Both the position numbers and the translations under genes were made by a program. Of a stretch of DNA of 62,933 nt, positions 1,919-50,200 are shown in pieces. The notes beneath the pieces are model-generated. The model ran no database searches. It saw nothing but the letters and a program-made list of their open reading frames with translations, and was not told the origin of the DNA. Source of the DNA: a virus (Duplodnaviria; Caudoviricetes); IMG/VR virus record IMGVR_UViG_3300032282_004841, positions 1-62,933 of that record; one strand, written 5' to 3'. Every line of letters starts with the position of its first letter. The first letter of the stretch is position 1.

Positions 1919-1939
1919 TTTGATTTGAGTAAGACACTT

Positions 1940-1963
1940 GTTACAATGCTAAAATATTGTAAC
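1940..1963 (+). promoter_or_regulatory. Perfect 8-bp inverted repeat enclosing an extended -10-like element
   Basis: GTTACAAT-gctaaaat-ATTGTAAC; TGcTAAAAT at 1947-1955; TTGAGT at 1925-1930; directly upstream of SD GAGG and ATG 1973, in the only real gap of the + cluster. Confidence 0.5.
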
Positions 1964-1972
1964 GAGGTGCAA

Positions 1973-10290: not shown

Positions 10291-10451
10291 TTTCATCTCT
10301 ACTATTTTGCTAACTAATAGTTCTATTGCTAATAGCCTTAGATCTATGACCGTAGATGATTTAATTGGGGAGATAGAGTGGTTTAAGAAAACCGATCTCC
10401 CTTTTTCTTCTGAAGTTAAAGTGTTATTTGAGAGCGAGCTTGATAATAGGT

Positions 10452-11114
10452 TTAAAGATACTCAAGACTTACATAAAGTCCATACTGAGTCTTAGAACCA
10501 ATACCTGTTGGCGATGCAGTCAACCCTAAATACCAATCATGTCTTAGTCCTGATCCTGTGGTATTTCCAACAGCATTAAGACCGCTTGTACCAGGAGAAT
10601 TTCTTAAAGGAAGGAAGTTTGCTACTTCGGTAACATCTTTCCATGTTCCAGAACCAGAACCAACAACTAACTGAGATGGGTCTGGATGAACTACTTCATA
10701 TGCAAATGTGCTAACACCACTTGCTTTGCTTGCAATACTACTTCTATCATAAATTATTACTTTTGCATTTTGTGTTCTAACATTTGTAGTTGGGTGTGTA
10801 AATCTAATGTTTAAAGTAGACAGATAATTAGGAATTTTATTAACAGCTATTGAAGTCGAACTTCCTGGGGTTTCTTGCCCAAGAATAGCAGATGCTGCTG
10901 CTGTCCACTTTACATTCCTAGCTTCTAACCCTTGTGTAACTCCAGAGCCATCTGTGATAAATGTTCTCTCTTGAAAACTATTTACCTGTACAGATGTTCC
11001 AAATCCATTGCCGTAAAAACCCAATCCGCTTCCTGCCGGAGCATTTATATTATGCTCTCCAGAAACGCCATTTGTCAGTGGATTAACATAGAAAGATATA
11101 CTTGGGGTAGCCAT
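10452..11114 (-). CDS. Putative virion structural protein (Ser/Gly/Thr-rich, beta-rich)
   Basis: Last gene of the structural operon; strong SD AGGAG; own GGTGTAA motif upstream. Confidence 0.6.
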   Translation of the reverse strand: MATPSISFYVNPLTNGVSGEHNINAPAGSGLGFYGNGFGTSVQVNSFQERTFITDGSGVTQGLEARNVKWTAAASAILGQETPGSSTSIAVNKIPNYLSTLNIRFTHPTTNVRTQNAKVIIYDRSSIASKASGVSTFAYEVVHPDPSQLVVGSGSGTWKDVTEVANFLPLRNSPGTSGLNAVGNTTGSGLRHDWYLGLTASPTGIGSKTQYGLYVSLEYL

Positions 11115-11137: not shown

Positions 11138-11151
11138 TAATAATTACACCA
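11138..11151 (-). promoter_or_regulatory. Putative phage late promoter motif, copy 1
   Basis: TGGTGTAATTATTA, ~36 nt upstream of ATG 11114; overlaps the GT stop codon. Confidence 0.5.
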
Positions 11152-11956
11152 TTTTTGAATCTTCGAACCTTTTAATAGAAGTTAAAAGTTCTTCAGGGGT
11201 TATTTGTTTGCTAAAATGCTCTATTACTTCCCCTATGTCTAAGCCTAGCTCATGCCATCCTATTAGATAATTAACTATCCTGTCAACTAAAGAAAGTCTA
11301 TAAGGAACACCATTAGGGCGACCAAATCTATGAACCCACTTTAAAAATGGAAGGCATAGTGTTCTACCCCCATTTTGTCTAACCTTTTCTTGCATATAAC
11401 CTTCTTCTCCACCAAATCCCTTAAACTTTCTATTGAACGAAGGCCAGTTAGCCTTTTTCATGCAGAACAAGCCCATTCCTTGCATTGTTATGTCAAAAGG
11501 ATCACCTCTATGCACCAATGGGTCTAAGCCCCAAACACCGTACATGTGGCCTGACCATACAGGTGTAAAGTGAGTCGCCATGTTTTTCATATCGTCATAT
11601 AGTAATGGCCCTTGGAGAAGGTCTTTTTCAAGTCCTTTAATGGCTATATAATCTTTTAAATTTCTTATTACATTAGGGGCGAGCAATATGTGTGAGTCTA
11701 GGCAAAGCACATAGTCTTTAGTAGCCCTTTCAAATACGAAGTTTTTAGCTTCTGAAGGAGTATTAGCAGCACTAGGTTCATGAAAGTATTTAGTGTCTGT
11801 TAAATTACAAACTTTTTTAAGCTCTGAACAACCATTTTCTTCAGTATCTATGACTAAAATTTCGCAGTCTTGTACATCTTGATAAAGGCGAAGCGCCTGT
11901 ATTGTAAAGTAGCATCCATCAAAGTCTTTATAGGTTGGCATTCCTATTGTTATCAT
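11144..11956 (-). CDS. GT-A glycosyltransferase with GT2 N-terminus and GT27 (ppGalNAc-T)-like motifs
   Basis: ITIGMPTY, EILVID, CLDSH (DxH), TMQGMGLF, FGGEEGY, QNGG, VHRF...PY. Confidence 0.85.
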   Translation of the reverse strand: MITIGMPTYKDFDGCYFTIQALRLYQDVQDCEILVIDTEENGCSELKKVCNLTDTKYFHEPSAANTPSEAKNFVFERATKDYVLCLDSHILLAPNVIRNLKDYIAIKGLEKDLLQGPLLYDDMKNMATHFTPVWSGHMYGVWGLDPLVHRGDPFDITMQGMGLFCMKKANWPSFNRKFKGFGGEEGYMQEKVRQNGGRTLCLPFLKWVHRFGRPNGVPYRLSLVDRIVNYLIGWHELGLDIGEVIEHFSKQITPEELLTSIKRFEDSKMV

Positions 11957-17431: not shown

Positions 17432-20392
17432 TTAGAAACCTCTTATATACATAGTTGTATTATTAATAATCAAACCTTTAGTTAATGGCATAGCTAAACT
17501 AGTAGAGTTGCTAAATGTTAAGTTGTTAGATATGTACATCGTAAAACTTTCTGGCAAATAAAACGATGAATATCCATTTATATACATAGACATAGTATTA
17601 CTTGTACTAGGAGTTCTTTCAATGTACATATTTAAACTTTGATTAAATGGCAAAGCCCCATTGCTTGTTTCTTCTGTTTTTATAGTTAAAATAAAAGTGT
17701 TTGATTTAATTCTAGTGTCATTTTGCAAAAACAATGTGCTTGAATTAGTACTGTATGAAAGTTCTGATCGTATAAACATATTAACATTTGCAATAAATTT
17801 AAAACTTTCTTGAGCTAGCATAAACAAGTTCATCGTAGAGCTAAATACTTGTCCTTCTATGTATAAAGATCTTCCTGCTATTATCTGTGTAAGACTGTCT
17901 ATGCCTAATGAATTTATATACAACGGCGTTGAATTAGTTACTTGTACAGGTTCTACAACTTTTATAAATAACGGAATTTTTTCATTTTTAGGATCTGCAC
18001 CAATATACAAGTTTGTCGTATTTGAGTATTCATTAAAACCTTTTATAAACAATGTTCTTATTGGACTTGAAGATGGATCTAATTGAGTTGAATGTCCATT
18101 TATAAACAATGTGGTTGATATGCTTTGTTCGCCATAAATAAATAATGTTGTGTTGCTATTTAAATCGGGCGATAATTGTAATACTAAAGGCAATCCAGGA
18201 TTCGTAGTTTCATAAGTATTTGCTGCGATTGTATACAATGTTGTTTTATTATTTAAGTTTGGCGATAGCTGCAATACTAATGGTAATCCTGGATTTGAAG
18301 TTTTATAAGTATCTATACCGCTTATAAATAATGTTTTAGATTCTAATATTCTAGCATCTGCTCTTAAAGTAATAGGTTCTGAAAAAAAAGTAGGAAGATA
18401 ACTAGTAGATGGTATATCAGAAACGCTTGTCGCTATGTTATTCCAGTTTATATTATCTTGTACTGGCGCTCCCAAAGAAAAAAATGTAAATTTAGCATTT
18501 CCAGAACCTGTAGATGTTATATTGTTTTCTGTTCCGTTATATTTTCCAAATTTTACTTTTGGCAATCCATAACTTCCAACCCCATAACTACCAACTATAA
18601 ATTTGTATATTCCTTCTATCCAATAGTTTGCAGTTTGTGAATAATATGAAAAGAATGGAGGTGGATCGGCTAACGGATTTTTATTTGTGTTTGCAACTAA
18701 ACATGTAAAATAAATTCCATCTATTAATACTATATCAAATACTATATAGCCAGAAGAAGAGTTCCAATTAGAACTATTGATTAATCCAATCGGTAAATCA
18801 TCACCTTCTATTTTTACAAAAGTATTATTAGTACTACTTAAATAAGATGTTAATTTAAATCTTTCATCTGAAAATTCAAATGTATTTTGTAATACATCAA
18901 CAGTAGAAGAGTTTAAAGTTAAATCAACCGAAAAATTCATAGGTTCTTTTAAAGATACATTTTTTTTAGCTTGTACTATAGATGTGCGTTCTTCACTTTC
19001 TTTGAACAAACTTATTGAATATGGAGGATAAGGAAGACTAACATATTGAGAAGAAATTGTTTTGTATTTATAAGAAATTATATCATTAGTAGAATAAGAA
19101 CCGTTTATGTCGTACTCGCCTAAATAATTAGGTCTTAATGCATAGTCAGGATTGGTATTTTTTCCTATCGTACTATTAAGAATAGGATATGAATAAATAA
19201 AATATTTAAATCTAAAGTCTATGCTTTCGCCTTCTAGCAAATTTCCAGTAAAATAAGCATCTATTGTAGCCTTTCCTTTTATAAATTTGGTATTTCCTCT
19301 AGGACCTACAAGACTCATATTTGCGACCTTGGTAGTAATATTTTTATTTACTATTTCTACCTCGAAATTATAAGTAGTATAACCAGTACTATAATTGTAA
19401 TAAGATCCATTTACTGTTTGTGTCCAATCAAATGACTGTATTCCATTTCCATCTAATATTGTTATTTCTATGGGTGGCTCTAAATAATTTTGCTGCTGAA
19501 AGCTTTTGTATAAATACGCAAAAGAAGGAACATTATCAAATTTTATAAAACATGGATAAGAATATTTTCTGCCATTACCATCAAAATAAATTTTTTGTAT
19601 TTCTTCTATTGGTATTGTTTCATTATAAAATCTTAAATCGTCTATGTTTAAATTTATTGGATTGGTATTGTCATACCCGCCCATATAGAATCTATTCATA
19701 GAAGTACCAAGAATTTGAGCTAGACTAAAGTAATTATTGTCAATTAATGTTGTGTATCTATATAAATCTACCATTCTTTGCAATTGATAATTGTATGTTT
19801 CTCCGTACTTATATTTCAAAGGATTAAAAACTTCTATTAGATTTGCATCTATGTAAAAACTAATTGGTTGATAGGAAACAGCTGCGCTTGCATCATATAT
19901 TGTATCTTGCGTTATTGTTATTAAATGCCAAGTGTCTGGCGAAAAGGTATTGGTTGCGCTTTGTATAAGCTTTACATATTTTGTAAGATCCCAAAGACTT
20001 CCGTTCTGAAGATATTGGTAATGCTGTAAGTAAAGTTTTAATGAATTGTTTTCTTGGTCAATGTCTATTTGTAATGCGTAATCAAAACCAGCGCTATCAT
20101 TCGTAGAATACATTCTTGCTATAGTCCCAGGATCTCCGCCATCTGTAGTTATAAACTTTACCCAAAAAGATATAGAAAATGTACTATTACTAGACACGCC
20201 ATAAGTTGATGGATCAAAATAAAATCCTAGAGCAGAAAGATCAAATCTAGATCTATAGCATCTCCCTAAATTTGTTAGTCCGTCTTCATAAGCTGCTAAA
20301 GGGGCAACAAAACCTCCGTTATATTGCAACGCTGTTTGGTTAAGATCGTCATATAAAGTATCTTCAAAAGAAAATATTCTGGAAATTGCCAT
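17432..20392 (-). CDS. LamG/ConA-like domain tail protein with C-terminal (TTL[FY]I.G)-type repeats
   Basis: FSISFWVKF, DTWHLITIT, FYIDA and IDDLRFYNETI..EEI..IY LamG motifs; repeated TTLFI/MNLFM/MSMYI strands. Confidence 0.7.
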   Translation of the reverse strand: MAISRIFSFEDTLYDDLNQTALQYNGGFVAPLAAYEDGLTNLGRCYRSRFDLSALGFYFDPSTYGVSSNSTFSISFWVKFITTDGGDPGTIARMYSTNDSAGFDYALQIDIDQENNSLKLYLQHYQYLQNGSLWDLTKYVKLIQSATNTFSPDTWHLITITQDTIYDASAAVSYQPISFYIDANLIEVFNPLKYKYGETYNYQLQRMVDLYRYTTLIDNNYFSLAQILGTSMNRFYMGGYDNTNPINLNIDDLRFYNETIPIEEIQKIYFDGNGRKYSYPCFIKFDNVPSFAYLYKSFQQQNYLEPPIEITILDGNGIQSFDWTQTVNGSYYNYSTGYTTYNFEVEIVNKNITTKVANMSLVGPRGNTKFIKGKATIDAYFTGNLLEGESIDFRFKYFIYSYPILNSTIGKNTNPDYALRPNYLGEYDINGSYSTNDIISYKYKTISSQYVSLPYPPYSISLFKESEERTSIVQAKKNVSLKEPMNFSVDLTLNSSTVDVLQNTFEFSDERFKLTSYLSSTNNTFVKIEGDDLPIGLINSSNWNSSSGYIVFDIVLIDGIYFTCLVANTNKNPLADPPPFFSYYSQTANYWIEGIYKFIVGSYGVGSYGLPKVKFGKYNGTENNITSTGSGNAKFTFFSLGAPVQDNINWNNIATSVSDIPSTSYLPTFFSEPITLRADARILESKTLFISGIDTYKTSNPGLPLVLQLSPNLNNKTTLYTIAANTYETTNPGLPLVLQLSPDLNSNTTLFIYGEQSISTTLFINGHSTQLDPSSSPIRTLFIKGFNEYSNTTNLYIGADPKNEKIPLFIKVVEPVQVTNSTPLYINSLGIDSLTQIIAGRSLYIEGQVFSSTMNLFMLAQESFKFIANVNMFIRSELSYSTNSSTLFLQNDTRIKSNTFILTIKTEETSNGALPFNQSLNMYIERTPSTSNTMSMYINGYSSFYLPESFTMYISNNLTFSNSTSLAMPLTKGLIINNTTMYIRGF
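18148..18309 (-). repeat. 90-nt period tandem duplication within LamG gene
   Basis: YKTSNPGLPLVLQLSPNLNNKTTL vs YETTNPGLPLVLQLSPDLNSNTTL. Confidence 0.8.
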
Positions 20393-23300
20393 TATGCGTT
20401 CCTTATATCTCGTATGTCTAGTTTTCCTTCACTAACATCATTTAGTCTTCCTGTTATATCACTTACGGCTTTTCCAACTGCGGTAGTAATATCTTTTGCA
20501 AAATCAGGAGAATCTATTGTAACGGTTGCCTGATTATTTACAGTTATATTTCCTGTTATATTGTCAGGTATATTTACCTTAGATAATTTATCCATCGTTC
20601 CTTCTAATTTATTTACAGACTTCTCCATTTTTGCCATACTTGTTTCAAATGATTTTGCTGCTTTATTAAATTCTCTAGCAGCATTATTAAGGCTGTCAAC
20701 ATCCATGCTGTTAGCGCTTTGACTATTTGCAACATTGTTCATTTTATCAAATACGCTTGCTCTAGGACTACCAACTGCGCCACCGTCATAAAACCTTTGT
20801 GGTTTTCTCATCTTTTCAAGATTGCCAAGACCAATCCTGTTTACTGCATGTCTCGGCATTACAAATTCACCAGCAGACAAGAAAGCTGGAATTGTATCTC
20901 CGTCTGAAGCTCCGTTTACATGTCCACCTTGTTCAAACCTTCTTGGTCTTCCTATCATATCCGCTATCGTATGCTCTATTAGTTTTGGATTTTCACCTTC
21001 TTTTGGCTTAAATCTTAAATCAAGATAATCTTTTTCTTTAATATTTGGATTAAAATATTCAGCCCTTGCAGTTATAGCTGTATGAACTGGGCTTCCGTCT
21101 TCGTCTTTTGTTCCGTACTCTTTCATAAAATCACCCGCATTTAACATTGGTTTGATTGTAGCTTTTGGATTTTTTATTTGTTTTAAAGGATCATTAATTT
21201 GCTGTTTATTTTTTTGTCTTATGACTTGCCCATTTATCGATGAACCAAGCGCACCTCTATCTTTGTTTAATTGGTCTAAAGACTCTTGTATATTTGTAAC
21301 ATCTTGATTTCTTAAAAAAGTATCTTGTTGATTAAAAATTTTACCTATTTCTCCAAAATAATTTGCATTATTAAAATCTTCATTTGGTCCAGAAAATCCT
21401 TTTATTTTTTGATTTTTTAATTTGTCCATAAATTCTTTTGCTATGTCTGAATCTAAAGTATTGTTAAAACCTTTTTTAAAATGTTTCATTCCAGTCAAAT
21501 AAGTTTTGTCAATTTCTTTATTATCTTTTAATAATTTTGGTATTTCATTAGGGCTAAATATTTTACCTTTTGCGCTTTTTTCAAATTCTTCACCTCTTTG
21601 ACCAAGTTTTTTTTGGCCTTTTCTTTTTATAGTGTCTAATTTATTTGCGATTTCATTGACCCTATCACCAGCTGCATAATATCCAACGGCTCCGCCATCT
21701 GCATAACCCTTTGGAGCAACAGACTTAACTTTCTGCAATTCTTCTGGAGCCTCAAACATTTTTAATATTTCTGGAGAAAAAGTCTCTGTTCTTTTTTGAA
21801 AATCTGTTACCGCACTTAATTTTTTCGTCATCATTTCTGGTAACGCTGTTTGCAATTTTTGCATTTCATTTGGATCTTGATATTTGCGTTTTTTTAAAGC
21901 TTTTTGCACTTTTTGCATATCGTTAGGATTTGGCATAGCCGTTTTAAGTTTTTGTATTTTGCTAAAATCTATTTCCCCTCCATCAGCATAATAACCAACC
22001 GAACCGCCAGAAGCGAGATGTTGCAAAAGAGAAGCATTTTCTGTTGATGATTTAGCATTAACTACGAAAGAACCTGTTTCCAATCGTGCGTAAACAGTAT
22101 CTGTATTTGCAGAAGGAATTCCTTTTGGATTTGGAGCATGATCAGGAACTGTAAATGATGCTTGACCCCCAAGACTAAGATGTTTTACTTTTCCACCGCT
22201 ATTTATATGACTTAAAAGACCTGGACTTCTGCTTTCTATTTGTGCAACTTTTCTTGGAGAAAAAACCTTTTCTTTTGGAGTTAACATAGTATCTATACTG
22301 CCACCACCATTACGATAAGCTACTGGACCGCCAGAGCTAGCATTAATAGGAATCCATTCAAAATCGCCCATTCCGCCATTACCTTGTTTTCTTACTGGCT
22401 TATGAGTAAATTCTTTTGGAGGAACAATGCTTAATGCTTCTTTTCCCCCTAATGGGAATCCCGATCTTGACCAACCATCTGGAAGTTTAATATCATAACC
22501 AATCTTATTAGAAACCATTTTTCTAAATGCTGTCCGTGTCTCTACATATTCAAAAGCACTATTAAGATCTGGCTCTTCTGCGTTCACTCTTTTTGCAGCA
22601 TCTTTAATTGATTTATCTGCTGATACACTAACTTTTGATCGATAATCATAAATTTGTTGATATATTGATTTTAAATCTTCTACTTGTTTTTCTTTTCCCG
22701 CTGCCATCAAACCAGGATTTTCTACGCCATTTTTATCTGTAACAGTACCATTGCCATATTGACCAAAGAAATCCATTTCAATATCACGCTGCGAAATATC
22801 CCACCAGCTTGTAGCATTATAACCCTTGGGAGTATCGCCTAAATATTTTTTTCCGCTAAAAGCTCCGGTTTTTGTCGGCCATATGACTGTATCTGGATCA
22901 AAATTAAGAGCCACGGGCTTGGCTTCTTCCGCTGGAATTGGAATCACAGGAGGCTTCGCCTGTTCCGCTGGCACTGCAACTACAGGCTTCGCTTTTTCCT
23001 CTGCTATTACTTTTGCTGCCTCCGCAGGTTTTTCTTTTTTATTTCTCTCTAAAAAGTCTTGTACCGCTATATTCTTAGATCCTTGTGGAGCTTTTTGTAT
23101 TTTATCCCTTATAAAGCTTTCTAATACTGCCTGATCTCTTTTAACCTTCTCGTAAACTGGAATAGAGAATTCGTTTCTATATGATAAATTTTTGCCTATA
23201 TAATCCATGTCATTTGCAATAATATCAATTTGATCATAGATATTATGATAATCTTTATTTTTTGATTGATAGTCATGCTTGCCCATTGATTGATCAATCA

Positions 23301-26300
23301 TTCGTTTGTTAGGTGGATCTCCAGCATGTATAAGATCGTCATCAGCGCCTTGCCATTTTATTCCAACAGCTTGATTATAAGTTTTATATAACTTCATCAA
23401 TCGATTCATATCTTTGCTAGGTTCGGTATAAATTTCTGGACTTTCTTTTTTTACTTCTCCCCTAACTTTTCTAGCTATAAGCATTGCTGCTTCACGATCC
23501 ATCTTAGCAGCTAGTTCAATATTTTTATTTTGTATAGTCCTAGCGAAATCTTCTGTGTCATTAAAACCAAATCTTCTTTCGTTTACAGAATCGTAATATT
23601 CCTGTAATGCCATAATAGCTGGATTTAAAACAGGTATGTTTTCATCGGCATATGCTTTTAAAGATACAGATGATAGCTTTTTTACATCGCCAAGTTTTGA
23701 TATGTCAACTTGTTTAAGAAAATCGCTATAAACTAATGGATCGTTAAAATCCATTTCTGGTTTTTTATGAGAAGCTATTGTTTTTGCTATTTGAGTGTGC
23801 AGTCTTTGTGCAATAGGATCAGTATCACCACTTTGAACTTGAGCTTTTTTGAACGCCATCATTTTTTTAATATCGTTTTCTTTTCCGCCAAATGCCTTAA
23901 CATTTTCATAATCAAGTTTTTTTCCTTGTAAATCTTTTGGATTAGTATGTCTAATAGCTTCAGAAAAAAGATCTTCTTTTAAACGACCAGCCTCGTCTAT
24001 TCTATTCTTTCTATTTAGCGCTGTTTGGTTTTCCATTTCTACATTTTTTATAGCTTGCGCTTCTTGCATAGCAATAGTAGGTCTAGCTATAGGCGCTGCT
24101 TCTGCTTCTGGTGTAAATTCTCCTTTAAATCCTTGCACTGGGAATGGAAGTTTATCATCTGGCAATCTTGGATTTTTTATTCTTGCGTATAAATTTTCAT
24201 TACTTTTTGCTAGTTTTGCATCAACACCCTTTAGAGGTATACCTTTTTCCAAGCTTGATTCTGCTTCTATTTCTGCGCTTACCTTCTTTTTTATATTCTC
24301 TATATTTTGTGCTAGTGCTTTGTTTTTTTGTTCTCTAGCTTGTTTTATCAAGTCTATTAATATGTCGGATTCTTGTTGGTTTGTATTTGTTTCTCCTGAA
24401 ATTTCTGTTCCTGTTAATGGATCTATTGAAGGTAATTTAAAGCCACCCATTCCGGCTCTGTGTCTAAGTTCATTTATTTTAAGGTTATTTATTAAATGAT
24501 CAGCGCCTTCTTCTGATAGTCCTCCTAATCCAACTTGACCAGCCGAACTAACTTCAAATCCTTGATTTTTAGTACTTGAAATTATATTAGGAGCGCTACC
24601 ATAACTACCTCCAACTTTTCTCCAAGTATCTCTTAAGCCATATACGCCCATGCCTTTTATATCATTGCTAACCGATTCATCTATTTCATTACCATAAGAG
24701 AATGGATATCGTGGAGTAATATCTTTTAAGTGATGAAAAAATTCATCTTCATAATCAAATTTATTTGCATCTTCTGTTATCTGTTTTAATGATGCTGCCG
24801 GAGCGCTAATATCTTTCCATGTATCTTTAGAATAAGTAAGTTTTCCTACTATATCTTGAGCCATACTTTCATTCTTACTTAATTTTCGACCTTCTGCATT
24901 TACATAAGCTAAATCACTAACAGCCCTTTCAAACTCAAGCCTTATGTCTGCAATAGTGTATTTTACATCATTTATGTCATCTACTTCTGATCTTCCTTCT
25001 TTATTATTTTTTCTGTCTGGCCTAATTTTATTTAAATGTTTTTCGTAGCCTTCAAATTGAAAACCTTCTGGCATCTTAAGATCTGTAAGATTATATTTTT
25101 CTTTTATTTTTGATTTTTTTTCTTTGTATTCTTTTGATTCTTCCATCTTTTTTATGTTTGCCAAGAGAAGATCTTTTTTATCCTGTATATTTTTTGGGCT
25201 AGATGGTTTCATCATCAAATCAATATCTTCTTTGCTAATCGGATTTACGCCTTCTGATACTGATACAAAATTTCTAGGAAACTTTATTGGTTGATTTGTA
25301 CCAGACTCAAACTTTTTAAAAGCTTCCCAAGCAATATCTTCTGCATCGTTTGAATAGTCTGCGTTTTTTTCTCCAAATGTGTCTATAAAATCTTTTCTAT
25401 TAAAAATACCATCTCTATCTTTATATGGATATGAACTATATTGCGTTATTACGCTTTGTTTTTTTACAGAAGAACCAGTCATAGATGCTCTATTATTAGC
25501 AATTCTCGCTCTTTCTTCTAAGGTTTCACGCCTACTTTTATCTATGTCTGCTTGAGTTAGTCTGCCTCCTACATCAAAATAGCCAACCTTATGGCCCTTA
25601 TTCATAGCTTCCAATTCTGGTCTATTATTTCTAGCAGCCCCCTCATTCATCACAAACTCGCCCTTACTAAGCAAGGTTGGATACTTATCCCTTTGGGCGA
25701 TATCTTTAGTTGGATTGTTATATATAGAACCACCCATTGATCTTCCGATAAAACCGCCATTTGCTTTTTCTTCTGGTTTTTTTAATCTTTTTTGTAAATC
25801 TTCAATGGCTTTTGTTAACAGATCTATTGCTTTTGGCAATTTATCTATTGATGTATTTGCATTTCTTAATTTTTCAGCTACTAAAAGAAGACCAACAAGT
25901 TCATCACCTCTTTGAATACCATTCAATCCACCTGGCATTTGCCTGTTTTCAACATCTTTAGTTGATGCGGGTTGAAATTGACCAACTTGTTCAGGTGAAA
26001 AAGGACCTGAAGCTACTTTTATTTTAAGCTCTAAAGCCTTTATTTTATCTTCAACATCTTTTCTTGCAGCAAAAACAGAACCTCTATTTTTAGGGTCGTT
26101 TAAAACCGGAGTTGAAAGTCCGCCAAAACTAGTTGCAAATCCTTTTTTTTGTTCGTTTAAATCTGTAGATAAAGCATCTCTTGAATTTGTTTTGTTTTCT
26201 GCTCTTTGAAGAAAAGGTAAAAATTCTTTATAGTTTTTTAATTTTGCGTTATCATCTGCTATATTTTGTAAATTTTCTTGTGCGAATACTTTAGGAAATT

Positions 26301-29300
26301 CTTTTTCTCTGTTTTGTTTGTTTTCACCTTTTCCGATTATTTCTGTGTAGTTTTTAAAATTTGGATCTTTTTCAATCGCTTTTAAATTATCTTGTGCAAT
26401 TTTATCTACGCCAATTTGCCCAGTAACACCTCTATTAAATTCTGTTATTAATAAATTTTTAAGTTCTTTTATAAAATCATTATTTACACCTTTTAATTTG
26501 TCAATCTGTAAAGCATTTTCCGTTTTAATTAATTTGGCATATAATTCCGCTGCTTCTTTTTGTTTTATAGTTATCTCTTTAATGTCCTGTAAAGCCTGAT
26601 CTATTTTTTTATTCTCTTCTCCAACTGGTACTCCTTGTCCTCCAGCTGCCCTTTCTAGCGCCACTTGTCTTACCTGTTCACCTGTTTTTCCACCAAGTTC
26701 AGGGAGTTTTATATTTCCATACAATTTTGTGTATTCAAAAAAAGCTTTTCTCTGTTTAAGAGACATGTCTTCTAAATTTGCACCACCAGCAACTTGTTCA
26801 GCAGCTTCTTTTCCTCTTCGTAAATTCCTTTTTCCGGCCCTATCCATAGTTAATAGATTTTCAGTTACTGATAATTTATTTTCTCTGTCTTTTTCAGCTT
26901 TGGTAAGTCTAGATTCAGCTTCTGCCAATGTAACCGTTTCATCTCTAAGATTTCTTAGTGCATCACCAAGCGAAGACACTACATTTCTAAGATTGTCATT
27001 TTTTTCTGCTATGCCTCTAGCTTTTTCTCTAGCATCAACATTAGAACTTGCTAAATCAGCATTGCTAGCTTGTAATTCTTTATCGGATTCTTCTAATGCT
27101 TCAGCTGCTTTTTTAATATTGTCAAATATGGTTTTAGGATCTTGTATACCTCCTACTTCCATTTTTCCAGCAGTAATATTTTGCTGTCTTTCAACAAAAG
27201 GAGCTATTCTTTGTTCTTTGGTTAGAAAATCTTCTGGATTTCCCCTTACTGCTCTTGCTTGTATAGCAGCATTAGCCTTGTTTACAGATAAAGATTTGTC
27301 AGATATTTTATCAAATTCTTGTATGTATTTTTTTTGTTCTTCTGATATTCTTCTGAGTCCAGATATATATGATTGTGTAACCTGATTAAGCGCTTGGGAA
27401 TTTGATTGCAATAAACCTTCGTACTCAGCTATTGTTTGCCCTAAAGCTTCCTTTGTTATTTTATCTCCGGTAACGCCACCTTTTTTAATATCTGTTTCTT
27501 TAGTTTCTAATACATTCTTAAATAAATCAAATAAATCTTGTTGAGTAGAAGTAAACTTTCCTCCCTGTGGTTTTAGTTTTTCTTTTAAGTTTTGTTCTGT
27601 TAAATTAGCTAAATTTCCGCCAAGATTATCTTTATTTTTTTCTTTTGCAGCATCAAACGCTGATGGTAATTCTAACACAAATGCGTTTAATTCTTTGGCT
27701 TGATTTTTTACTGAATCTCCTAATTCTCCAAAAGAAATAAAAACTTTATCTGCTTCTTTATTAAATAATTCGGAATCTGTTCCTATTTTTAACCTACTAG
27801 TATTTTGCTGTACTTTAAATTCAGATCTTCCTTCTAATTTATCACTAAAATTACCCATTGATTCGGAAATGTTTTTAAATGATTCAGATGCTAAATTTAC
27901 AGAATTAGACAATGTATTTATTCTTAGTGTTATTTTTTCATGAACTATAACCAAATTCTTTTGAGCTTCTTCTAATTTTTTTGCAGTAATAGCAGAACTT
28001 GCCAATGTTAATGCGTGTTTTTGAACTTCTATTGCTGATTTCCCACTCGCTACCCCAAGACTTTCTATCGCTAATTGTCCATATGTAGTTTGTTTGAATT
28101 CATTAAATATATCAGAACTTTTTCTTTGATCATCGGGCTTAACCATATTGGCAATTGCATTAGACAATTCTTCTGATATTGCTCCTAAATTAGATCCGAA
28201 TTTTTCAAGAGATTTAGCCCTTACTTCTTCCTCTAGTTTTGCTCCTGAAAATCCTTCTGAGGCTGCTGTTTTTCTAATGTCAAAAACAGTTGCTCTAACA
28301 TCGGTAAATGCAGCAGTACCCTTTTGTTCTCTTTCTAATCCTGAAAAATTCTTTAGTTCAACTAATTTTTCACTAGTAGATTTTGCTTGTTTATCAACTT
28401 GAAGTTTTAATAATTCTAATTGTGCTTTCTTTACAGCGCTTCCAAATCCTAGTAAGAAAGCTGTCGCACCACCAATAACAGCGAGAAAAGGTCCAGCAAC
28501 AGGAATCATACTTAAGGCTATTGCAGTTGTTGCTGCTTGATTTATTCCCTCTCCAACACCAGATGAATAAATATTTCTATTTGCACTTACTAATCCTTTA
28601 TCAACATCTTCAGCTGTTCCTGCGGTGCTTGCTATGTATTGTCCTCCTATAGCCAATCCAGCACCAGCAACACCAGCACCTATTCTTCCTAATCTGCTAT
28701 TTCTTAAGGCAGCAAAAGTTCCTGTTATTCCACCACCACCTCTACGCATTTCTTCTGCGAATTCATTTCCGGCACTTACTAAAGTATCCTCAATACTTCT
28801 AATAGTTAATTTTAATTTTCCAATTGCTGTTGATCCAACTTTTAACTCTTGCGACACGCCTCTCATTGATTGATCTACATTTTTTCCGCTGTCTACTATG
28901 TCTTGTTCTAATGACACTAATCCAAGTAATTTTCCTTCGCTATCTTTCGCTAATTTTGCATTCTGTTGCATCGCTACAGTAAATTTTTCAACAGCCATTT
29001 CCGCAAGAACTTCTTGATCTGTTATGCCTGTCGTTATTCGAAGTTGTTCTCCTATAGCTAATATAAGTTGTTTTCTTAATTTAGATTCTTCTTCAGCAGC
29101 CAATCTTATTTTTGTAACAGATGCAATATTCTCTCCATCTCCACTCGGAGAAATCTTGACAGCTTTTTCTCTTGCTCTATTTCTTATTTCGTCAGATATG
29201 TTTATTTTTTCATTTTTTGCATAGTCATAATCTTTGCCCTTTCCTACTTCTATCGTTGAGCCAGTTCCTATTTTTGTTCTGCTCTGTATATCCCCTGTAG

Positions 29301-32127
29301 GTAAACCCACATTGGTTAATCCCACTTCCTTAGACAGTTTACCTCTTTGTTGTTTTAAATATTTTAATTCTGCTGCATCTGCCTCTATTTCAGGCTGAGT
29401 TGCTGTGCTACTACGATTGGCGATTACTGCTTCTTGTGCTTTTATAGCATTGTCTATATCTTCATATCTTCGCATTATATCAGTTGCTATTCTAGAAGCC
29501 TCTGCAAGCTTTTGAGTTTCGCTTAAATTTGCTCTAAAAGCCTTGACCTCTTCAAGAATTATTGCTTCAAGAGAAGCTTGGGCTGCTGTAAGATCTGGAA
29601 AACCTTGTACAAATTCTTGTATCTTTTGAAATTTTGGAACTTGTACTTGTGTTTGAGAAGCAACAGTATAAGCTTCTTCGCCTATTGGATTTCCGCCAGC
29701 AGCAAGACCTACTCTACCTCCAGCAGCAAACTTAGCATGTTTGTTCATTCTTTCTAAATTTGCAGATCCTATAGATTTTGCAGAAGAAGGCGAAAATACA
29801 AACTCACCTGGCATTAACATGGCAGGAACTTTTCCGCCCTCAGCATATCCTTTTCTAGAAATACTGCTTAAATTTTCAGCGCCAAGTTTAGCAACAGAAG
29901 ATTTTCTAACTACAAAAGATCCTTCGTCTAGATCCATAGGAACACTATCCGTATTCCCAGTTCCTGGAATCATAAATCCGCCAGCTGCCTTTTTTGTTGC
30001 TAATCTATTTTTAGCTTCTTGAGTACTTAATGTTACATTGCTTATGCCTTCAGATGTTTCTGTTGCATATGTTTTTCTTCTGTAGTTTTCTTGTCCAGCA
30101 GTTATTGTTTCTGTATCTTTAAATGCATCATTGCCTGTTATTTTTGCAGTGTTATAAACAAGTCCTATTTGTCCTAAATCTATAGTCTCTTCTCCCTTGG
30201 AAGAGTTTTTAAAGATATTATCTCCAAACTTTTGAAATCTATATCTAGCTAACTTATCAACTATAGAAGCATCACTAACAGGACTAGCTACATTTTTTAC
30301 CTCGTAAGGGAAACCATTCTTTTCTAAATCTACAGGACTGTTAGATCCTCTATCATCTGATTTTGCTATTCGAATAGCTCCTAGTTGTTTTTCTGCTTCT
30401 TTTTCAAAAAACTCACCTTGCTTTTTATAGTCACCTTTTAAAGATTCTTTTCCTCCGTCAACTTTTATAGTAACTATTTCATATTTAAAATTATCATTTT
30501 TATTTATAGTTTTTCCTGTTTTATAATCCTCTTCTTTAATAAGAGGGTCATTTAATTTACGCTGAATTGCCAAAGAAGACATTTCGTTAACAGAAACAGT
30601 GCCACCACCAGCGTATTTTTTAGGTATTACTAATTCGCCTGGTTCTAACAATGCTTTAACTTTATCTCCACTCCCACTACCAGGAACCACACCACCGTTT
30701 TTCATTTTTATATAACCACCTTCGGCAACCCTATTTTGATTAAATATTTTAGGGTTTGGAGAAGCGGTAACACCAGTAGCAAAACCTTTAACAAACTGTC
30801 CAAAAGAAGTGGCTAGCTTTACAGCAGCAATAGCAGTTATTAAAGGAAGAAGAAATTTTAGAGCATCTGCTAGTTGAATAGCTGCACTTGCTCCAGAAAT
30901 AAAAGTATCAAAGATTTTTTGAAAGCCAGACGATTGAGTAACAGATCGTATAAGAGCATTAAACTCTTCTTTAATTTTTTGTATTTTTATAATGTAAGCA
31001 TTTTGTGCTTGGGCAGCATTAGCAGCCAAAGAAGAAGATCCGCCCAAAGCTACATTGAGCGCCCCTTGACTTACTGAGAATTCTTGCAAAAGAGGTATAA
31101 CTTTTGAGATCTGTCTATAACCACCAAGCTCTTCTACTATAGCTGAGTATTTTCCCGATGTAGTAGGAATGCCAGCCAACGCTTCTGACAATCTCCTTAC
31201 TGCCTCATAAGGGCCTACAAATTGATCTGCTAATTTTGTATTTCCTAAAGCAGTAGCTTCTTGTGATGTATATCTAAGATTTATACCTAACTCTTTAAGA
31301 GACTCTATGGTTTGCCCACGCTGTATTCTTGTAAATATAGTTCTCAACCCAGTACTAATTGTTTCGGCGCTCTCTCTAGTTGTCTGTCTTACAGATGTAA
31401 ATAACGCTAGCAATTCATTTAGATCACCACCAGCAGATTTAAAAGCACCACCAGTTTTTCTAATAACTTCAACTAAGTCAGATGCTTCAACTGCATACTC
31501 GCCAGCAACTGCATTTACGGAACCTAAAGCAGCTTCTAGTCCTGCTGCCCCAATCTTAAATTGGTTTAAAACCGCAATAGCACCTTGAGTTGTATTTGCA
31601 AAGTTTTCAAAGTTAGGAGCTAAAGCAGCTTTTGCTAATGCTTCAAGAGCTATTTTAGTATCATCGATTGATAAGTTAGCTTGTTTTAATGTTACAGCAG
31701 CGCCGATTAAATCCTTACTAGAAACGCCAAGAGCAACGGACAGTCTAGTTACTTCATTTCCAACCGCTTGTATAGATGCAACGCTATCATTTGAAACCTG
31801 TCCTAATCGAACCATTTCCCTATCAAAAGAAATAGCTTCGGCAGTAGACGATTTTATAGCACTTACTAAAGTAATCATTGAACCAGCAGCCAAACTAAAA
31901 GCACCAAACCTTTTTGCTGCTAAACCAGCTTGTCTACCAAAACTTTCTACAGAAGTAATAGCCCCTTCTATGTCCGCCTTTATTCTTTTTATTGAATCAG
32001 GATTAGCAAGAGAAAGGTCAACCGTCACTCTTTTGTTTTGAAGTGCTTTGTTGATATCTCTTGATATTTTTGTGGCTGCTCCAGATGCGAGAGCGACATT
32101 CATGATTGCGGTAATATTGAAAGCCAT
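20392..32127 (-). CDS. Tail tape measure protein (TP901-type core), 3911 aa, with inserted domains
   Basis: N-terminal PhageMin_Tail-like region (FDREMVRL, VAGEYAVEASDL, RESAETISTGLRTIFTRI), hydrophobic segments, long coiled coils; follows tube and chaperone genes. Confidence 0.92.
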   Translation of the reverse strand: MAFNITAIMNVALASGAATKISRDINKALQNKRVTVDLSLANPDSIKRIKADIEGAITSVESFGRQAGLAAKRFGAFSLAAGSMITLVSAIKSSTAEAISFDREMVRLGQVSNDSVASIQAVGNEVTRLSVALGVSSKDLIGAAVTLKQANLSIDDTKIALEALAKAALAPNFENFANTTQGAIAVLNQFKIGAAGLEAALGSVNAVAGEYAVEASDLVEVIRKTGGAFKSAGGDLNELLALFTSVRQTTRESAETISTGLRTIFTRIQRGQTIESLKELGINLRYTSQEATALGNTKLADQFVGPYEAVRRLSEALAGIPTTSGKYSAIVEELGGYRQISKVIPLLQEFSVSQGALNVALGGSSSLAANAAQAQNAYIIKIQKIKEEFNALIRSVTQSSGFQKIFDTFISGASAAIQLADALKFLLPLITAIAAVKLATSFGQFVKGFATGVTASPNPKIFNQNRVAEGGYIKMKNGGVVPGSGSGDKVKALLEPGELVIPKKYAGGGTVSVNEMSSLAIQRKLNDPLIKEEDYKTGKTINKNDNFKYEIVTIKVDGGKESLKGDYKKQGEFFEKEAEKQLGAIRIAKSDDRGSNSPVDLEKNGFPYEVKNVASPVSDASIVDKLARYRFQKFGDNIFKNSSKGEETIDLGQIGLVYNTAKITGNDAFKDTETITAGQENYRRKTYATETSEGISNVTLSTQEAKNRLATKKAAGGFMIPGTGNTDSVPMDLDEGSFVVRKSSVAKLGAENLSSISRKGYAEGGKVPAMLMPGEFVFSPSSAKSIGSANLERMNKHAKFAAGGRVGLAAGGNPIGEEAYTVASQTQVQVPKFQKIQEFVQGFPDLTAAQASLEAIILEEVKAFRANLSETQKLAEASRIATDIMRRYEDIDNAIKAQEAVIANRSSTATQPEIEADAAELKYLKQQRGKLSKEVGLTNVGLPTGDIQSRTKIGTGSTIEVGKGKDYDYAKNEKINISDEIRNRAREKAVKISPSGDGENIASVTKIRLAAEEESKLRKQLILAIGEQLRITTGITDQEVLAEMAVEKFTVAMQQNAKLAKDSEGKLLGLVSLEQDIVDSGKNVDQSMRGVSQELKVGSTAIGKLKLTIRSIEDTLVSAGNEFAEEMRRGGGGITGTFAALRNSRLGRIGAGVAGAGLAIGGQYIASTAGTAEDVDKGLVSANRNIYSSGVGEGINQAATTAIALSMIPVAGPFLAVIGGATAFLLGFGSAVKKAQLELLKLQVDKQAKSTSEKLVELKNFSGLEREQKGTAAFTDVRATVFDIRKTAASEGFSGAKLEEEVRAKSLEKFGSNLGAISEELSNAIANMVKPDDQRKSSDIFNEFKQTTYGQLAIESLGVASGKSAIEVQKHALTLASSAITAKKLEEAQKNLVIVHEKITLRINTLSNSVNLASESFKNISESMGNFSDKLEGRSEFKVQQNTSRLKIGTDSELFNKEADKVFISFGELGDSVKNQAKELNAFVLELPSAFDAAKEKNKDNLGGNLANLTEQNLKEKLKPQGGKFTSTQQDLFDLFKNVLETKETDIKKGGVTGDKITKEALGQTIAEYEGLLQSNSQALNQVTQSYISGLRRISEEQKKYIQEFDKISDKSLSVNKANAAIQARAVRGNPEDFLTKEQRIAPFVERQQNITAGKMEVGGIQDPKTIFDNIKKAAEALEESDKELQASNADLASSNVDAREKARGIAEKNDNLRNVVSSLGDALRNLRDETVTLAEAESRLTKAEKDRENKLSVTENLLTMDRAGKRNLRRGKEAAEQVAGGANLEDMSLKQRKAFFEYTKLYGNIKLPELGGKTGEQVRQVALERAAGGQGVPVGEENKKIDQALQDIKEITIKQKEAAELYAKLIKTENALQIDKLKGVNNDFIKELKNLLITEFNRGVTGQIGVDKIAQDNLKAIEKDPNFKNYTEIIGKGENKQNREKEFPKVFAQENLQNIADDNAKLKNYKEFLPFLQRAENKTNSRDALSTDLNEQKKGFATSFGGLSTPVLNDPKNRGSVFAARKDVEDKIKALELKIKVASGPFSPEQVGQFQPASTKDVENRQMPGGLNGIQRGDELVGLLLVAEKLRNANTSIDKLPKAIDLLTKAIEDLQKRLKKPEEKANGGFIGRSMGGSIYNNPTKDIAQRDKYPTLLSKGEFVMNEGAARNNRPELEAMNKGHKVGYFDVGGRLTQADIDKSRRETLEERARIANNRASMTGSSVKKQSVITQYSSYPYKDRDGIFNRKDFIDTFGEKNADYSNDAEDIAWEAFKKFESGTNQPIKFPRNFVSVSEGVNPISKEDIDLMMKPSSPKNIQDKKDLLLANIKKMEESKEYKEKKSKIKEKYNLTDLKMPEGFQFEGYEKHLNKIRPDRKNNKEGRSEVDDINDVKYTIADIRLEFERAVSDLAYVNAEGRKLSKNESMAQDIVGKLTYSKDTWKDISAPAASLKQITEDANKFDYEDEFFHHLKDITPRYPFSYGNEIDESVSNDIKGMGVYGLRDTWRKVGGSYGSAPNIISSTKNQGFEVSSAGQVGLGGLSEEGADHLINNLKINELRHRAGMGGFKLPSIDPLTGTEISGETNTNQQESDILIDLIKQAREQKNKALAQNIENIKKKVSAEIEAESSLEKGIPLKGVDAKLAKSNENLYARIKNPRLPDDKLPFPVQGFKGEFTPEAEAAPIARPTIAMQEAQAIKNVEMENQTALNRKNRIDEAGRLKEDLFSEAIRHTNPKDLQGKKLDYENVKAFGGKENDIKKMMAFKKAQVQSGDTDPIAQRLHTQIAKTIASHKKPEMDFNDPLVYSDFLKQVDISKLGDVKKLSSVSLKAYADENIPVLNPAIMALQEYYDSVNERRFGFNDTEDFARTIQNKNIELAAKMDREAAMLIARKVRGEVKKESPEIYTEPSKDMNRLMKLYKTYNQAVGIKWQGADDDLIHAGDPPNKRMIDQSMGKHDYQSKNKDYHNIYDQIDIIANDMDYIGKNLSYRNEFSIPVYEKVKRDQAVLESFIRDKIQKAPQGSKNIAVQDFLERNKKEKPAEAAKVIAEEKAKPVVAVPAEQAKPPVIPIPAEEAKPVALNFDPDTVIWPTKTGAFSGKKYLGDTPKGYNATSWWDISQRDIEMDFFGQYGNGTVTDKNGVENPGLMAAGKEKQVEDLKSIYQQIYDYRSKVSVSADKSIKDAAKRVNAEEPDLNSAFEYVETRTAFRKMVSNKIGYDIKLPDGWSRSGFPLGGKEALSIVPPKEFTHKPVRKQGNGGMGDFEWIPINASSGGPVAYRNGGGSIDTMLTPKEKVFSPRKVAQIESRSPGLLSHINSGGKVKHLSLGGQASFTVPDHAPNPKGIPSANTDTVYARLETGSFVVNAKSSTENASLLQHLASGGSVGYYADGGEIDFSKIQKLKTAMPNPNDMQKVQKALKKRKYQDPNEMQKLQTALPEMMTKKLSAVTDFQKRTETFSPEILKMFEAPEELQKVKSVAPKGYADGGAVGYYAAGDRVNEIANKLDTIKRKGQKKLGQRGEEFEKSAKGKIFSPNEIPKLLKDNKEIDKTYLTGMKHFKKGFNNTLDSDIAKEFMDKLKNQKIKGFSGPNEDFNNANYFGEIGKIFNQQDTFLRNQDVTNIQESLDQLNKDRGALGSSINGQVIRQKNKQQINDPLKQIKNPKATIKPMLNAGDFMKEYGTKDEDGSPVHTAITARAEYFNPNIKEKDYLDLRFKPKEGENPKLIEHTIADMIGRPRRFEQGGHVNGASDGDTIPAFLSAGEFVMPRHAVNRIGLGNLEKMRKPQRFYDGGAVGSPRASVFDKMNNVANSQSANSMDVDSLNNAAREFNKAAKSFETSMAKMEKSVNKLEGTMDKLSKVNIPDNITGNITVNNQATVTIDSPDFAKDITTAVGKAVSDITGRLNDVSEGKLDIRDIRNA

Positions 32128-32217: not shown

Positions 32218-33024
32218 CTACTCGACAATAGGCTTGCCTGTATCGTCTAAGAATGGAGTAAAATCTACAATGTAATTACCTTCTTCGTCTACCTTATTGC
32301 CATCCATATCAATGAATTCGCCCTGTTCATTAATATAACGACCTTCAGCATTAAGAAGACGGCCCTCAGAGTCAATCCTTCGACCTTGAGCATCAATTAG
32401 ATTTAACTTGTCATCAATAAATTTGTATTTTTTTAGAAATTCATTTTCTGGCAATTTATCTTCATAGTCTTGGTTAATGCCGTAAAGCATCATAGCCAAG
32501 TTAGAAGCTGCTGGCCCAATTGCTGGATCAACATCTTTTGCAAGAAATTCCTCATGGGATTTGAAGTAGGACTTGCCAGTGTCATTATACAAAGTACAGC
32601 TAGACACAAAGAAGTTAAACTGGGCATTATCGGCTTGGCCCTCAGCGGTATTATTATCCAAACCAATCCGGTCTGAATTTAAATTCCTGAGTTCCGCCCT
32701 GTACTTCTTCATCTGAAGAGCTACTTCTTTAGCTTCTGTCAGTTTAATACCACCAGATTTGATCTTCCGTTCAGCTTCAGAGAGCTTGTCTTGAATTTCA
32801 CGAAGTTGTTTCTGTTTGTTGTCATCCCAAAGCTTTTGATCACGCATAACGCTTTCAACTTTGGCACGAAGAATACCACCAGATTCGACTGCATCACGAA
32901 AGGCTTTATTATAAACCTTCTGTCCTTCTTGCTTTTGCTTTACAGTAGGTCGTTGAACTGCGAGTTCAATTTCCTTATCGTCAAGCTTTACCTTAAAAAC
33001 CCTTTTGTTATCAGGCGCACTCAT
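32218..33024 (-). CDS. Putative tail assembly chaperone with C-terminal 7-aa [DN]xxG repeats
   Basis: Immediately upstream of TMP; charged/helical; LIDAQGRRIDSEGRLLNAEGRYINEQGEFIDMDGNKVDEEGNY. Confidence 0.6.
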   Translation of the reverse strand: MSAPDNKRVFKVKLDDKEIELAVQRPTVKQKQEGQKVYNKAFRDAVESGGILRAKVESVMRDQKLWDDNKQKQLREIQDKLSEAERKIKSGGIKLTEAKEVALQMKKYRAELRNLNSDRIGLDNNTAEGQADNAQFNFFVSSCTLYNDTGKSYFKSHEEFLAKDVDPAIGPAASNLAMMLYGINQDYEDKLPENEFLKKYKFIDDKLNLIDAQGRRIDSEGRLLNAEGRYINEQGEFIDMDGNKVDEEGNYIVDFTPFLDDTGKPIVE

Positions 33025-33026
33025 AA

Positions 33027-33392
33027 CTATCCTCCTATAGAATAATTTCTAACATGACCGTTCCAAGAAACCGAATATTGATCTATCTCAGATTCTACAG
33101 ACCTTAGCTGATTATTTCCATTATTAAGTATTTCAGATCTGCATTTTTCCCAAACATTTTTCCAATATTGCTTTTCTTTTATATCGTAATCGTCATCACT
33201 TGGGTTTATTTTCCACAGTTCTTCAAAAGATAACTCTACGGCAGAGAGAGCGCCTATAAAAGAAGTCTTCATTTTAGTTTTAATTACTTTTTGTAGTTTG
33301 TCTTTTGATAGTAAATCGTGCTTTTCTAATAGTCTTTTTTCGTCTTCTCTATTTATTTTAGAAGCTCTTTCAAAGTTCTCATGAATTCCCAT
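33027..33392 (-). CDS. Hypothetical helical protein (tail chaperone region)
   Basis: 121 aa, SD GAGGA, located between tube and TMP. Confidence 0.65.
   Translation of the reverse strand: MGIHENFERASKINREDEKRLLEKHDLLSKDKLQKVIKTKMKTSFIGALSAVELSFEELWKINPSDDDYDIKEKQYWKNVWEKCRSEILNNGNNQLRSVESEIDQYSVSWNGHVRNYSIGG

Positions 33393-40144: not shown

Positions 40145-50200
<10,056 letters not shown>

Follow-up and report, generated by a model that had tools for sequence, protein, structure and literature searches.

How, where and why phage lambda cuts its tape measure protein (TMP) has been an open question since 1974. Here we describe a module of about 65 amino acids (aa) that occurs once in the lambda TMP, gpH, and seven times in P0001, the 3,911-aa TMP of an uncultured phage, which is encoded as a single open reading frame (ORF) at 20392-32127 on the minus strand of the window that we analysed: the whole of IMG/VR record IMGVR_UViG_3300032282_004841, 62,933 bases long, with a CheckV completeness estimate of 42%. 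Lambda gpH is cut into gpH* and gpHC; a 2025 study (PMC12617516) calls both the cut site and the catalyst unknown, reports that gpHC remains with the tail tip, and presents a structure in which only residues 818-849 of gpH are modelled, leaving the module region unresolved. The lambda copy, FATGG...HRGEFVFTKEATSRIGVGNLYRLMRGYATGGYVG, spans aa ~733-790 and lies within gpHC, a short way downstream of the glycine-rich region in which gpH is cut. From residue ~691 onwards a hydrophobic stretch is followed by GGAVGGGASASGG, then by FATGGFTGTGGKYEPAGIVHRGEFVFTKEATSRIGVGNLYRLMRGYATGGYVG and then by ~70 residues. A hydrophobic stretch rich in Gly leads into FATGG...GEFVFTKEATSRIGVGNLYRLMRGYATGGYVG, and a hub-docking tail of ~70 aa comes after it. 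From its size of 14 kDa, the C-terminal fragment of lambda would begin near aa 715-720, which puts the inferred cut 15-35 residues before the first half-site of the module; this is proximity, not proof of a role.

Phage T5 too has a TMP, pb2, that is cut as the tail assembles; the cut lies between a hydrophobic stretch and a functional (peptidase) piece at the C-terminus, which is kept in the tip. The TMP of the cultured mycobacterial siphophage Douge, gp16 (PDB 8ZDO/8ZDQ), holds two internal copies of the module, at aa 964-1015 and 1412-1461 of 1,699, and differs from P0001 in that number, in its actinophage lineage and in the form of its core, SDSMLARVSNGEFI; its structure models residues 1658-1699 only, and the accompanying paper contains no text on sodium dodecyl sulphate-polyacrylamide gel electrophoresis, mass spectrometry or proteolysis. 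With one copy in lambda gpH, one in a Nitrincola phage and two in Douge, a preliminary description of the window was right to say that ordinary TMPs carry the motif in low copy near the C-terminus. Finally, gp96 of Thermus phage P23-45 is a 5,002-aa TMP fused to a virion RNA polymerase, and the enzyme is carried into the host (PMC10770324). This protein belongs to a different lineage from P0001 and has no repeated joint; no module was detectable in it with either of our profiles at a domain E<=1.

Set beside lambda gpH, with its one copy in 853 aa, P0001 has seven copies in 3,911 aa and belongs to a different TMP core family; of the two, lambda gpH alone has documented cleavage. The order of hydrophobic stretch, Gly-rich stretch and module is common to lambda gpH and to aa 415-534 of P0001, at the end of its N-terminal core and in module 1 (M1), and the order at the lambda end also parallels that of M7 and the C-terminal tail. 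P0001 is the TMP of this phage. The PhageMin_Tail domain of TP901 type (PF10145) matches aa 125-335 at 72.1 bits against a cut-off of 33.2 (80.5 bits on the genome), tape-measure families are the only ones matched in PHROGs, full-length relatives measure 3,979-4,358 aa, and the composition is TMP-like, with hydrophobic stretches at aa 415-433 and 1198-1216 (mean Kyte-Doolittle hydropathy above 1.6 in each).

The module opens with a flexible, Gly-rich [FY]AxGG half-site; the core D-x-V-P-A-x-L-x-x-G-E-F-V, an extended peptide that hardly varies, comes next, then a short amphipathic pair of helices, and another Gly-rich half-site closes it. Aligned on the Leu of L..GEFV, the seven copies read xGxxxGDxVPAxLxxGEFVxxxxAxxxxGxxxLxxMN with [FY]AxGG half-sites on either side; after the core comes the helix A..(I/Y)G...L..(M/I)N, a part that M1 does not have, and M5 is degenerate. 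The protein as a whole runs from an N-core with a hydrophobic helix through M1, segment S1, M2-M3, S2, M4, S3, M5-M6, S4 and M7 to a tail of ~120 aa. In what follows all nucleotide positions are on the minus strand, nucleotide ranges given for cores are those of the 16-residue core, bit scores are those of the leave-one-out profiles described below, and close relatives are the nine proteins P0002-P0010, which are 40-91% identical to P0001.

The conserved N-core (aa 1-467, 30727-32127) is 92-98% identical across the nine relatives and contains the PhageMin_Tail core domain (31123..31755) and hydrophobic helix 1 (aa 415-433, 30829..30885), just upstream of M1. M1 itself occupies aa 468-534 (30526..30726; core LEPGELV at aa 494, 30619-30666; 17.6 bits), and homology with 131 other giant TMPs stops there. 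S1 (aa 535-706, 30010..30525) is a variable cassette in sequence comparison, with an invariant PVDLEKNGFPYEVKN stretch, and leads into M2 (aa 707-773, 29809..30009; core LDEGSFV at aa 733, 29902-29949; 15.5 bits) and, in tandem with it, M3 (aa 745-811, 29695..29895; core LMPGEFV at aa 771, 29788-29835; 42.8 bits). S2 (aa 812-2126, 25750..29694) is rich in helix-forming residues (50%, a figure of composition, not structure), with the hydrophobic stretch at aa 1198-1216 (28480-28536) and a weak coiled-coil Pfam match at aa 1680-1748. M4 (aa 2127-2193, 25549..25749; core LSKGEFV at aa 2153, 25642-25689; 14.2 bits) has a trailing YFDVGG and precedes S3 (aa 2194-3255, 22363..25548), the most variable part in the nine-relative alignment and one with no known domain. 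The degenerate M5 (aa 3256-3322, 22162..22362; core LTPKEKV at aa 3282, 22255-22302; 0.3 bits) is followed by M6 (aa 3323-3389, 21961..22161; core LETGSFV at aa 3349, 22054-22101; 15.1 bits), which has a trailing YYADGG, and then by S4 (aa 3390-3723, 20959..21960), in which pattern matching finds the stand-alone half-sites GYADGGAVGYYAAGDRV at 21667-21720. M7 (aa 3724-3790, 20758..20958; core LSAGEFV at aa 3750, 20851-20898; 24.9 bits) is the copy nearest the family consensus. To judge from lambda, T5, T1, Douge and JBD30, the C-terminal tail that follows it (aa 3791-3911, 20395..20757) is probably the part that docks into the hub of the tail tip.

The regular expression L..[GK][ES].V has 8 matches in P0001, the seven copies and LGFGSAV at aa 1226; 200 shuffled versions gave 0.4 matches on average and never more than 3. 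Profiles made from six copies recovered the seventh in 6 of 7 cases, at 14.2-42.8 bits; the LTPKEKV copy scored 0.3 bits, where the best of 200 shuffled proteins reached 2.8 bits. Half-sites of the form [FYW]x1-2GG number 10 in P0001, against a mean of 2.9 and a maximum of 10 in 1000 shuffles, and eight of them adjoin modules. The seven GEFV-type cores all lie where the preliminary description had placed them, and the [FY]AxGG half-sites that it listed, the stand-alone pair at 21667-21720 among them, are real. When P0001 was compared with itself by BLAST, no internal repeat reached E<=1e-3; the module has no match in Pfam even at E<=10, and no module was found in the other frames of the window, where the next best match had E = 0.86. 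Half-site codons vary at synonymous positions, and the repeat is therefore maintained at the level of protein, not DNA. In each of two relatives rated complete by CheckV (G001 and G002), all 7 module matches lie within one 3,979-aa frame, and only in the TMP. The module copies are maintained by selection on the protein and not on the DNA.

The repeats of P0001 belong to an ancient 'joint' module associated with tape measures. Among 1.84 billion representative proteins, a profile built from its seven copies matched 10,927 clusters at E<=1e-3; at E<=1e-10 there were 2,910 and at E<=1e-30 still 617. The best matches are proteins of 2,100-7,872 aa with 3-10 matched stretches each, and giant TMPs with 4-10 copies, up to 7,872 aa long, number in the hundreds. 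We then pooled the 150 best profile matches with 57 full-length relatives into a set of 202 proteins, which was picked for high scores and whose copy numbers are therefore biased upward. These hold 979 modules (920 unique), with 1-10 copies per protein and a median of 5, and copy number increases with protein length (r = 0.73). The first module starts at a median residue of 516, and a median of 140 aa separates the end of the last one from the C-terminus. Modules are unevenly spaced, at a median of 674 aa (interquartile range 273-1107), with 8% in tandem. The consensus of the 920 unique modules is GG.(I/V)YA.AGGG.V.GPGGTDTVPAMLTPGEFVVNKKA..K(I)G..LL..INNG..GG. Within it, the invariant peptide has the family consensus DTVPAMLTPGEFV, with D conserved at 94%, P at 93%, L at 98%, G at 99%, E at 95% and V at 98%.

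A tblastn search with copy 7 returned 269 cultured-phage records, nearly all of them under genes annotated as tape measure, among them Gordonia, Mycobacterium, Escherichia, Vibrio, Nitrincola and Microcystis phages. In cyanomyophage S-SM2 the match falls in a 766-aa membrane protein beside baseplate-hub genes, and in pelagiphage HTVC104P the module ends gp81 (L151, 5906-7207), a hypothetical protein of 433 aa whose gene lies between those for portal and capsid. The latter is not a TMP, and the module is therefore not strictly confined to TMPs. An alignment of 138 rows (A3), made from the seven window copies and 131 IMG/VR loci, matched three entries among PDB chain sequences: Douge gp16 twice (E 2e-12), lambda gpH at residues 752-780 (E 0.008), where only the GEFV-plus-helix half of the copy is matched (positions 29-57 of 66), and the 1,431-aa tape measure 8VJH, where E is 0.47 and not significant. 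The module region is modelled in none of the three matched structures. We found no description of the module in the literature under 'GEFV' with 'tape measure' or under TMP polyproteins, in a search with subscription journals and supplements outside its reach. The module is an old element, present in lambda, unnamed and without a Pfam model; what is new here is the multi-copy variant of this known but unnamed tape-measure element.

The AlphaFold2 model of the module as a monomer is weak, with a mean pLDDT of 64.9, only two short helices at ~80 and the invariant peptide without regular structure; a trimer prediction from three module copies with A3 scored 0.02 against a mark of 0.42 and counts neither way. 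The near-invariant peptide of 13-16 residues lies between glycine hinges and has no fold of its own in this model; it looks like a short recognition or docking element, not a domain or an autonomous fold. The reading that we favour, by a modest preference, is that the modules are boundary signals of a segmented ruler. The invariant peptide and its glycine hinges would act together as the signal between the ruler's functional segments; the module would mark the place at which the assembled TMP matures, through cleavage of the Gly-rich hinge next to the module, as the placing of its lambda counterpart suggests; and the conserved joints would give relatives a common frame for the exchange of segments, whether cut or uncut. 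By analogy, to mark maturation would be the most likely single role of the module. That at least one internal module of P0001 is cut in virions is a possibility that we hold tentatively, giving it the same weight as uncut docking or register joints, and we doubt the stronger proposition that the module is a portable maturation signal, each copy of which would direct a lambda-type cut in its own glycine hinge.

All seven module positions are retained in all nine close relatives, that of the degenerate M5 among them. Over the 16-residue core, M1-M3 have an identity of 0.94-0.97 against 0.76-0.87 in the flanks (100 residues each side), and M4-M7 one of 0.78-0.83 against 0.39-0.64, with M4 at 0.83 against 0.39. 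This retention, the marked conservation of the cores relative to their flanks and the near-invariance across 920 modules tell against an origin of the giant gene in ordinary TMP genes that were duplicated or fused end to end, with the internal modules as leftover C-terminal motifs that now have no function. The first ~535 aa (core, hydrophobic helix, module) do resemble a complete small TMP, laid out like the C-terminal end of lambda, and in some relatives the regions upstream of different modules are weakly similar to one another, both of which favour such an origin; we nevertheless regard evolutionary scars as an already disfavoured and highly improbable account.

Another way to view the modules is through the segments that they separate. 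The largest indel among the close relatives, 106-391 aa inserted in 6 of 9, is placed precisely at aa 3380/3381, within the half-site YYADGG that trails M6, and the insertion is bounded by YADGG and FADGG (in P0002 it runs from GYYADGG| to GFADGG|EIDFSK). Three of the nine have a 116-121-aa insert at aa 3488, after the stand-alone half-sites (aa 3470-3487), and P0008 has a 229-aa deletion that ends at the start of M5. Compared with the TMP of a complete 221-kb relative (L007), P0001 aligns in four main blocks, at aa 1-518 (77%), 712-2188 (34%), 3272-3384 (41%) and 3489-3786 (32%), most of whose edges fall on modules (M1, where M2 begins, where M4 ends, M5-M6 and where M7 ends), with 3489 just past the stand-alone half-sites; a fifth, weaker block at 2772-2957 (29%) lies inside S3, away from motifs. 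S1 has no counterpart in the loci of 10 of 10 IMG/VR relatives or in the L007 TMP. At the nucleotide level, contigs from three other studies (freshwater, lake, estuary) match the TMP gene in blocks of 85-99% identity, and 13 of the 30 internal block edges in three long contigs, by a hand count that leaves 159 further pieces outside, fall inside modules or half-sites, which make up 11.8% of the gene. Edges at 20955, 21675 and 25575 recur across contigs of different studies, 25575 in two of them and at M4. As judged from these alignments, the modules sit at the edges of segments gained, lost or replaced among relatives.

Between P0001 and the other 201 proteins of the set, with high-scoring segment pairs (HSPs) shorter than 120 aa or below 30% identity excluded, a module lies no more than 20 aa away from 11 of 38 breakpoint clusters, where chance would give 6.3 (p ~0.045). 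We also compared a random 70 of the 202 all against all, leaving out HSPs shorter than 150 aa or below 25% identity and any ends that fell in the 20 aa next to a terminus. Of the 2354 breakpoints beyond M1, 573 are 25 aa or less from a module, where 330.5 +/- 16.4 were expected, and 105 of the 1781 non-module breakpoints lie within 12 aa of a stand-alone half-site, where 64.9 were expected; the breakpoints of related proteins are non-independent and the permutation figures therefore overstate significance. The enrichment at modules and half-sites is real but modest, ~1.6-1.8-fold.

That non-independence is one of several points that weigh against the modules as boundary signals. Roughly 75% of the points at which homology breaks off lie away from any module, and part of the enrichment at modules may be due to their being conservation islands, where alignments start and stop. 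The claim that motifs would bound the indels stands for the largest indels, and for an overall enrichment of ~1.7-fold, but not for most breakpoints. Among the close relatives, the deletions at aa 2909-3017 and 2255-2295 and several indels of 30-67 aa are off-motif. As for maturation, no cleavage has been mapped to a module in any phage, the lambda site is inferred only from fragment size, and the one peptidase family that we tried in the records of four relatives, Prok-JAB PF14464, matched none of them. T5 pb2 is cut after R1127 although A3 has no match to it among PDB chains at E<=1; TMP cleavage therefore does not need the module. JBD30 gp46 likewise has no A3 match among these chains. The position that is Ser/Thr in the family core is Lys in 3 of the 7 P0001 copies, and copy 5 is degenerate. 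P23-45 gp96, at 5,002 aa, is reported to set an extraordinarily long tail, with no processing mentioned in the available part of its description (PMC10770324). The putative processing sites of the preliminary description are supported only insofar as the lambda copy lies ~15-35 residues from the inferred gpH cut.

That description went further and read the inter-motif segments as exchangeable cargo. Beyond the TMP core, nothing in P0001 is matched in Pfam, PHROGs, NCBIfam or PDB sequences, and a word-based search for free-standing homologues found none for S1 and, for S3, three fragments on short contigs only; cargo is therefore unproven in P0001. S1 does offer a lead, and a lead only: its invariant PVDLEKNGFPYEVKN stretch (D...E-x-K), kept in 10 homologues, resembles the PD-(D/E)xK nuclease motif, and in the ESM Atlas, where the best score for S1 was 0.88, a restriction-endonuclease cluster (R.HinP1I) came 6th at 0.86. 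An AlphaFold2 model of S1 with the 10 homologues had a mean pLDDT of 36 and was unusable. Among the 57 full-length relatives, on the other hand, three carry Pfam enzyme domains, all of them between modules. P0019 has an ADP-ribosyltransferase at aa 882-1036, between modules at 533 and 1463, as well as another at 1287-1447; P0021 has one at aa 798-953, between modules at 529 and 1227; these are of the exoenzyme type PF03496 (E 1e-44 and 2e-13) and lie between the first two modules. P0057 has a CHAP peptidase with LysM at aa 2674-2869, closely bracketed by modules at 2584 and 2891. We found no paper centred on a fusion of TMP and ADP-ribosyltransferase in the titles and abstracts among the matches listed. 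The cargo claim, which is matched by nothing recognisable in P0001, has its only match in these 3 of 57 relatives.

These domains are one argument for a full polyprotein, in which every module is cut and at least five exchangeable cargo proteins are packed in the tube and ejected ahead of the DNA. The position of the lambda module next to the gpH cut, the T5 pb2 cut, which frees an enzymatic C-terminal piece, and the segment swaps at modules point the same way. However, its cuts are predicted ones, the segments of P0001 have neither an enzyme signature nor free-standing homologues, S2 resembles an ordinary helical ruler with a hydrophobic stretch, the tandem pairs M2-M3 and M5-M6 would yield tiny fragments, and copy 5 is degenerate. 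We consider it unlikely that the protein is processed to this extent.

As to the cutting enzyme, Pfam finds no peptidase family among the 42 ORFs of the window. Lambda gpK had prompted the idea of a JAB peptidase that cleaves the TMP, which we dropped with no Prok-JAB found in four relatives. A likeness of the pattern 'G-D-S/T-x-P...G-E/D-x-V' to S24/S26 (LexA/signal peptidase) was also rejected: there is no Pfam match at E<=10, the register is off by one and the would-be nucleophile is not conserved.

The opposite case is a ruler that stays whole. Here the modules would be docking or register joints, which keep three or six chains in register and bind the tube lumen or assembly chaperones at intervals, and segment exchange at modules would be a by-product of their conservation. 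Each residue accounts for 1.49 A of tail length in T1 (34 rings x 42 A, 956 aa) and for 1.55 A in JBD30 (180 nm, 1,158 aa), and P0001, uncut and extended at 1.5 A per residue, would span a tail of ~0.59 um, in keeping with the correct arithmetic of the preliminary description (3911 x 0.15 nm = 587 nm). P23-45 gp96, likewise a giant TMP, is said to define an extraordinarily long tail (PMC10770324), and a tail of ~0.6 um is therefore the default expectation for P0001. The increase of copy number with length across the 202 proteins, a conserved peptide with a weak monomer fold, as fits a partner-dependent element, and the lack of a sheath family in both complete relatives also agree with an uncut ruler. 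Joints that hold register sit less easily with the very irregular spacing of the modules, with the module at the end of a non-TMP protein encoded next to the portal gene of HTVC104P, and with the single lambda copy, which lies in the piece that is cut off. We regard an intact protein as a serious alternative, albeit one that falls short of boundary signals in a segmented ruler, the reading that we retain.

The gene lies among small ORFs upstream and large ORFs downstream, with fibre genes in the same block, an order that fits a tail module, but its immediate neighbours have no match in Pfam, PHROGs or NCBIfam; two small ORFs directly upstream (121 aa and 268 aa, 32218..33392, minus strand) occupy the usual place of tail-assembly chaperones, by position alone. 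The two complete relatives, G001 (221 kb, reached via L007) and G002 (206 kb, reached via L009), each with a 3,979-aa TMP homologue, exceed 200 kb and have no match to the tail-sheath family PF04984; a very large (jumbo) phage with a non-contractile tail is therefore probable, an assignment that rests, for the tail, on one missing family. Estuary-, freshwater- and lake-labelled contigs from three further studies (runs X2, X3, X7 and X8) contain multi-kb pieces ~94-95% identical to the TMP gene, and the lineage is therefore probably one of fresh or brackish water. The sequencing runs listed as holding the gene include no RNA run.

Elsewhere in the window, two further giant ORFs on the minus strand, of 3,351 aa (40145-50200) and 1,573 aa (50215-54936), consist of repeated Ig/fn3-like units and match virion-structural, baseplate-wedge and fibre families in PHROGs. 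A collagen-repeat tail-fibre protein with a CBM_5_12 carbohydrate-binding module is encoded at 54893-57112 and a fibre protein with a tail-collar domain at 61617-62312, both also on the minus strand. The block on the opposite strand, at 90-10495 (plus), encodes PhoH, at least three group-1 glycosyltransferases, a MobA-like nucleotidyltransferase and a GHMP kinase, and by these family matches is a cassette for the activation and transfer of sugars; on the minus strand, 11144-11956 encodes a glycosyltransferase of family 2.

The module is a single conserved, unnamed element beside the gpH cut region of lambda, it is among the most strongly conserved TMP stretches in thousands of phages, and in giant TMPs it has been multiplied up to ten-fold. 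If each copy were indeed a portable maturation signal, then the tail tube of large siphophages would be loaded with five to ten separate proteins, some of them enzymes; an ADP-ribosyltransferase, a CHAP domain and perhaps a nuclease would enter the host ahead of the DNA and would be swapped between phages at the joints; and the module would be the long-sought determinant of the cleavage of lambda gpH to gpH*. More generally, if the joints are cut, giant TMPs would be modular protein-delivery devices, and if they are not, these proteins would be rulers for tails of at least 0.6 um, whose joints would reveal how such rulers are held or chaperoned.

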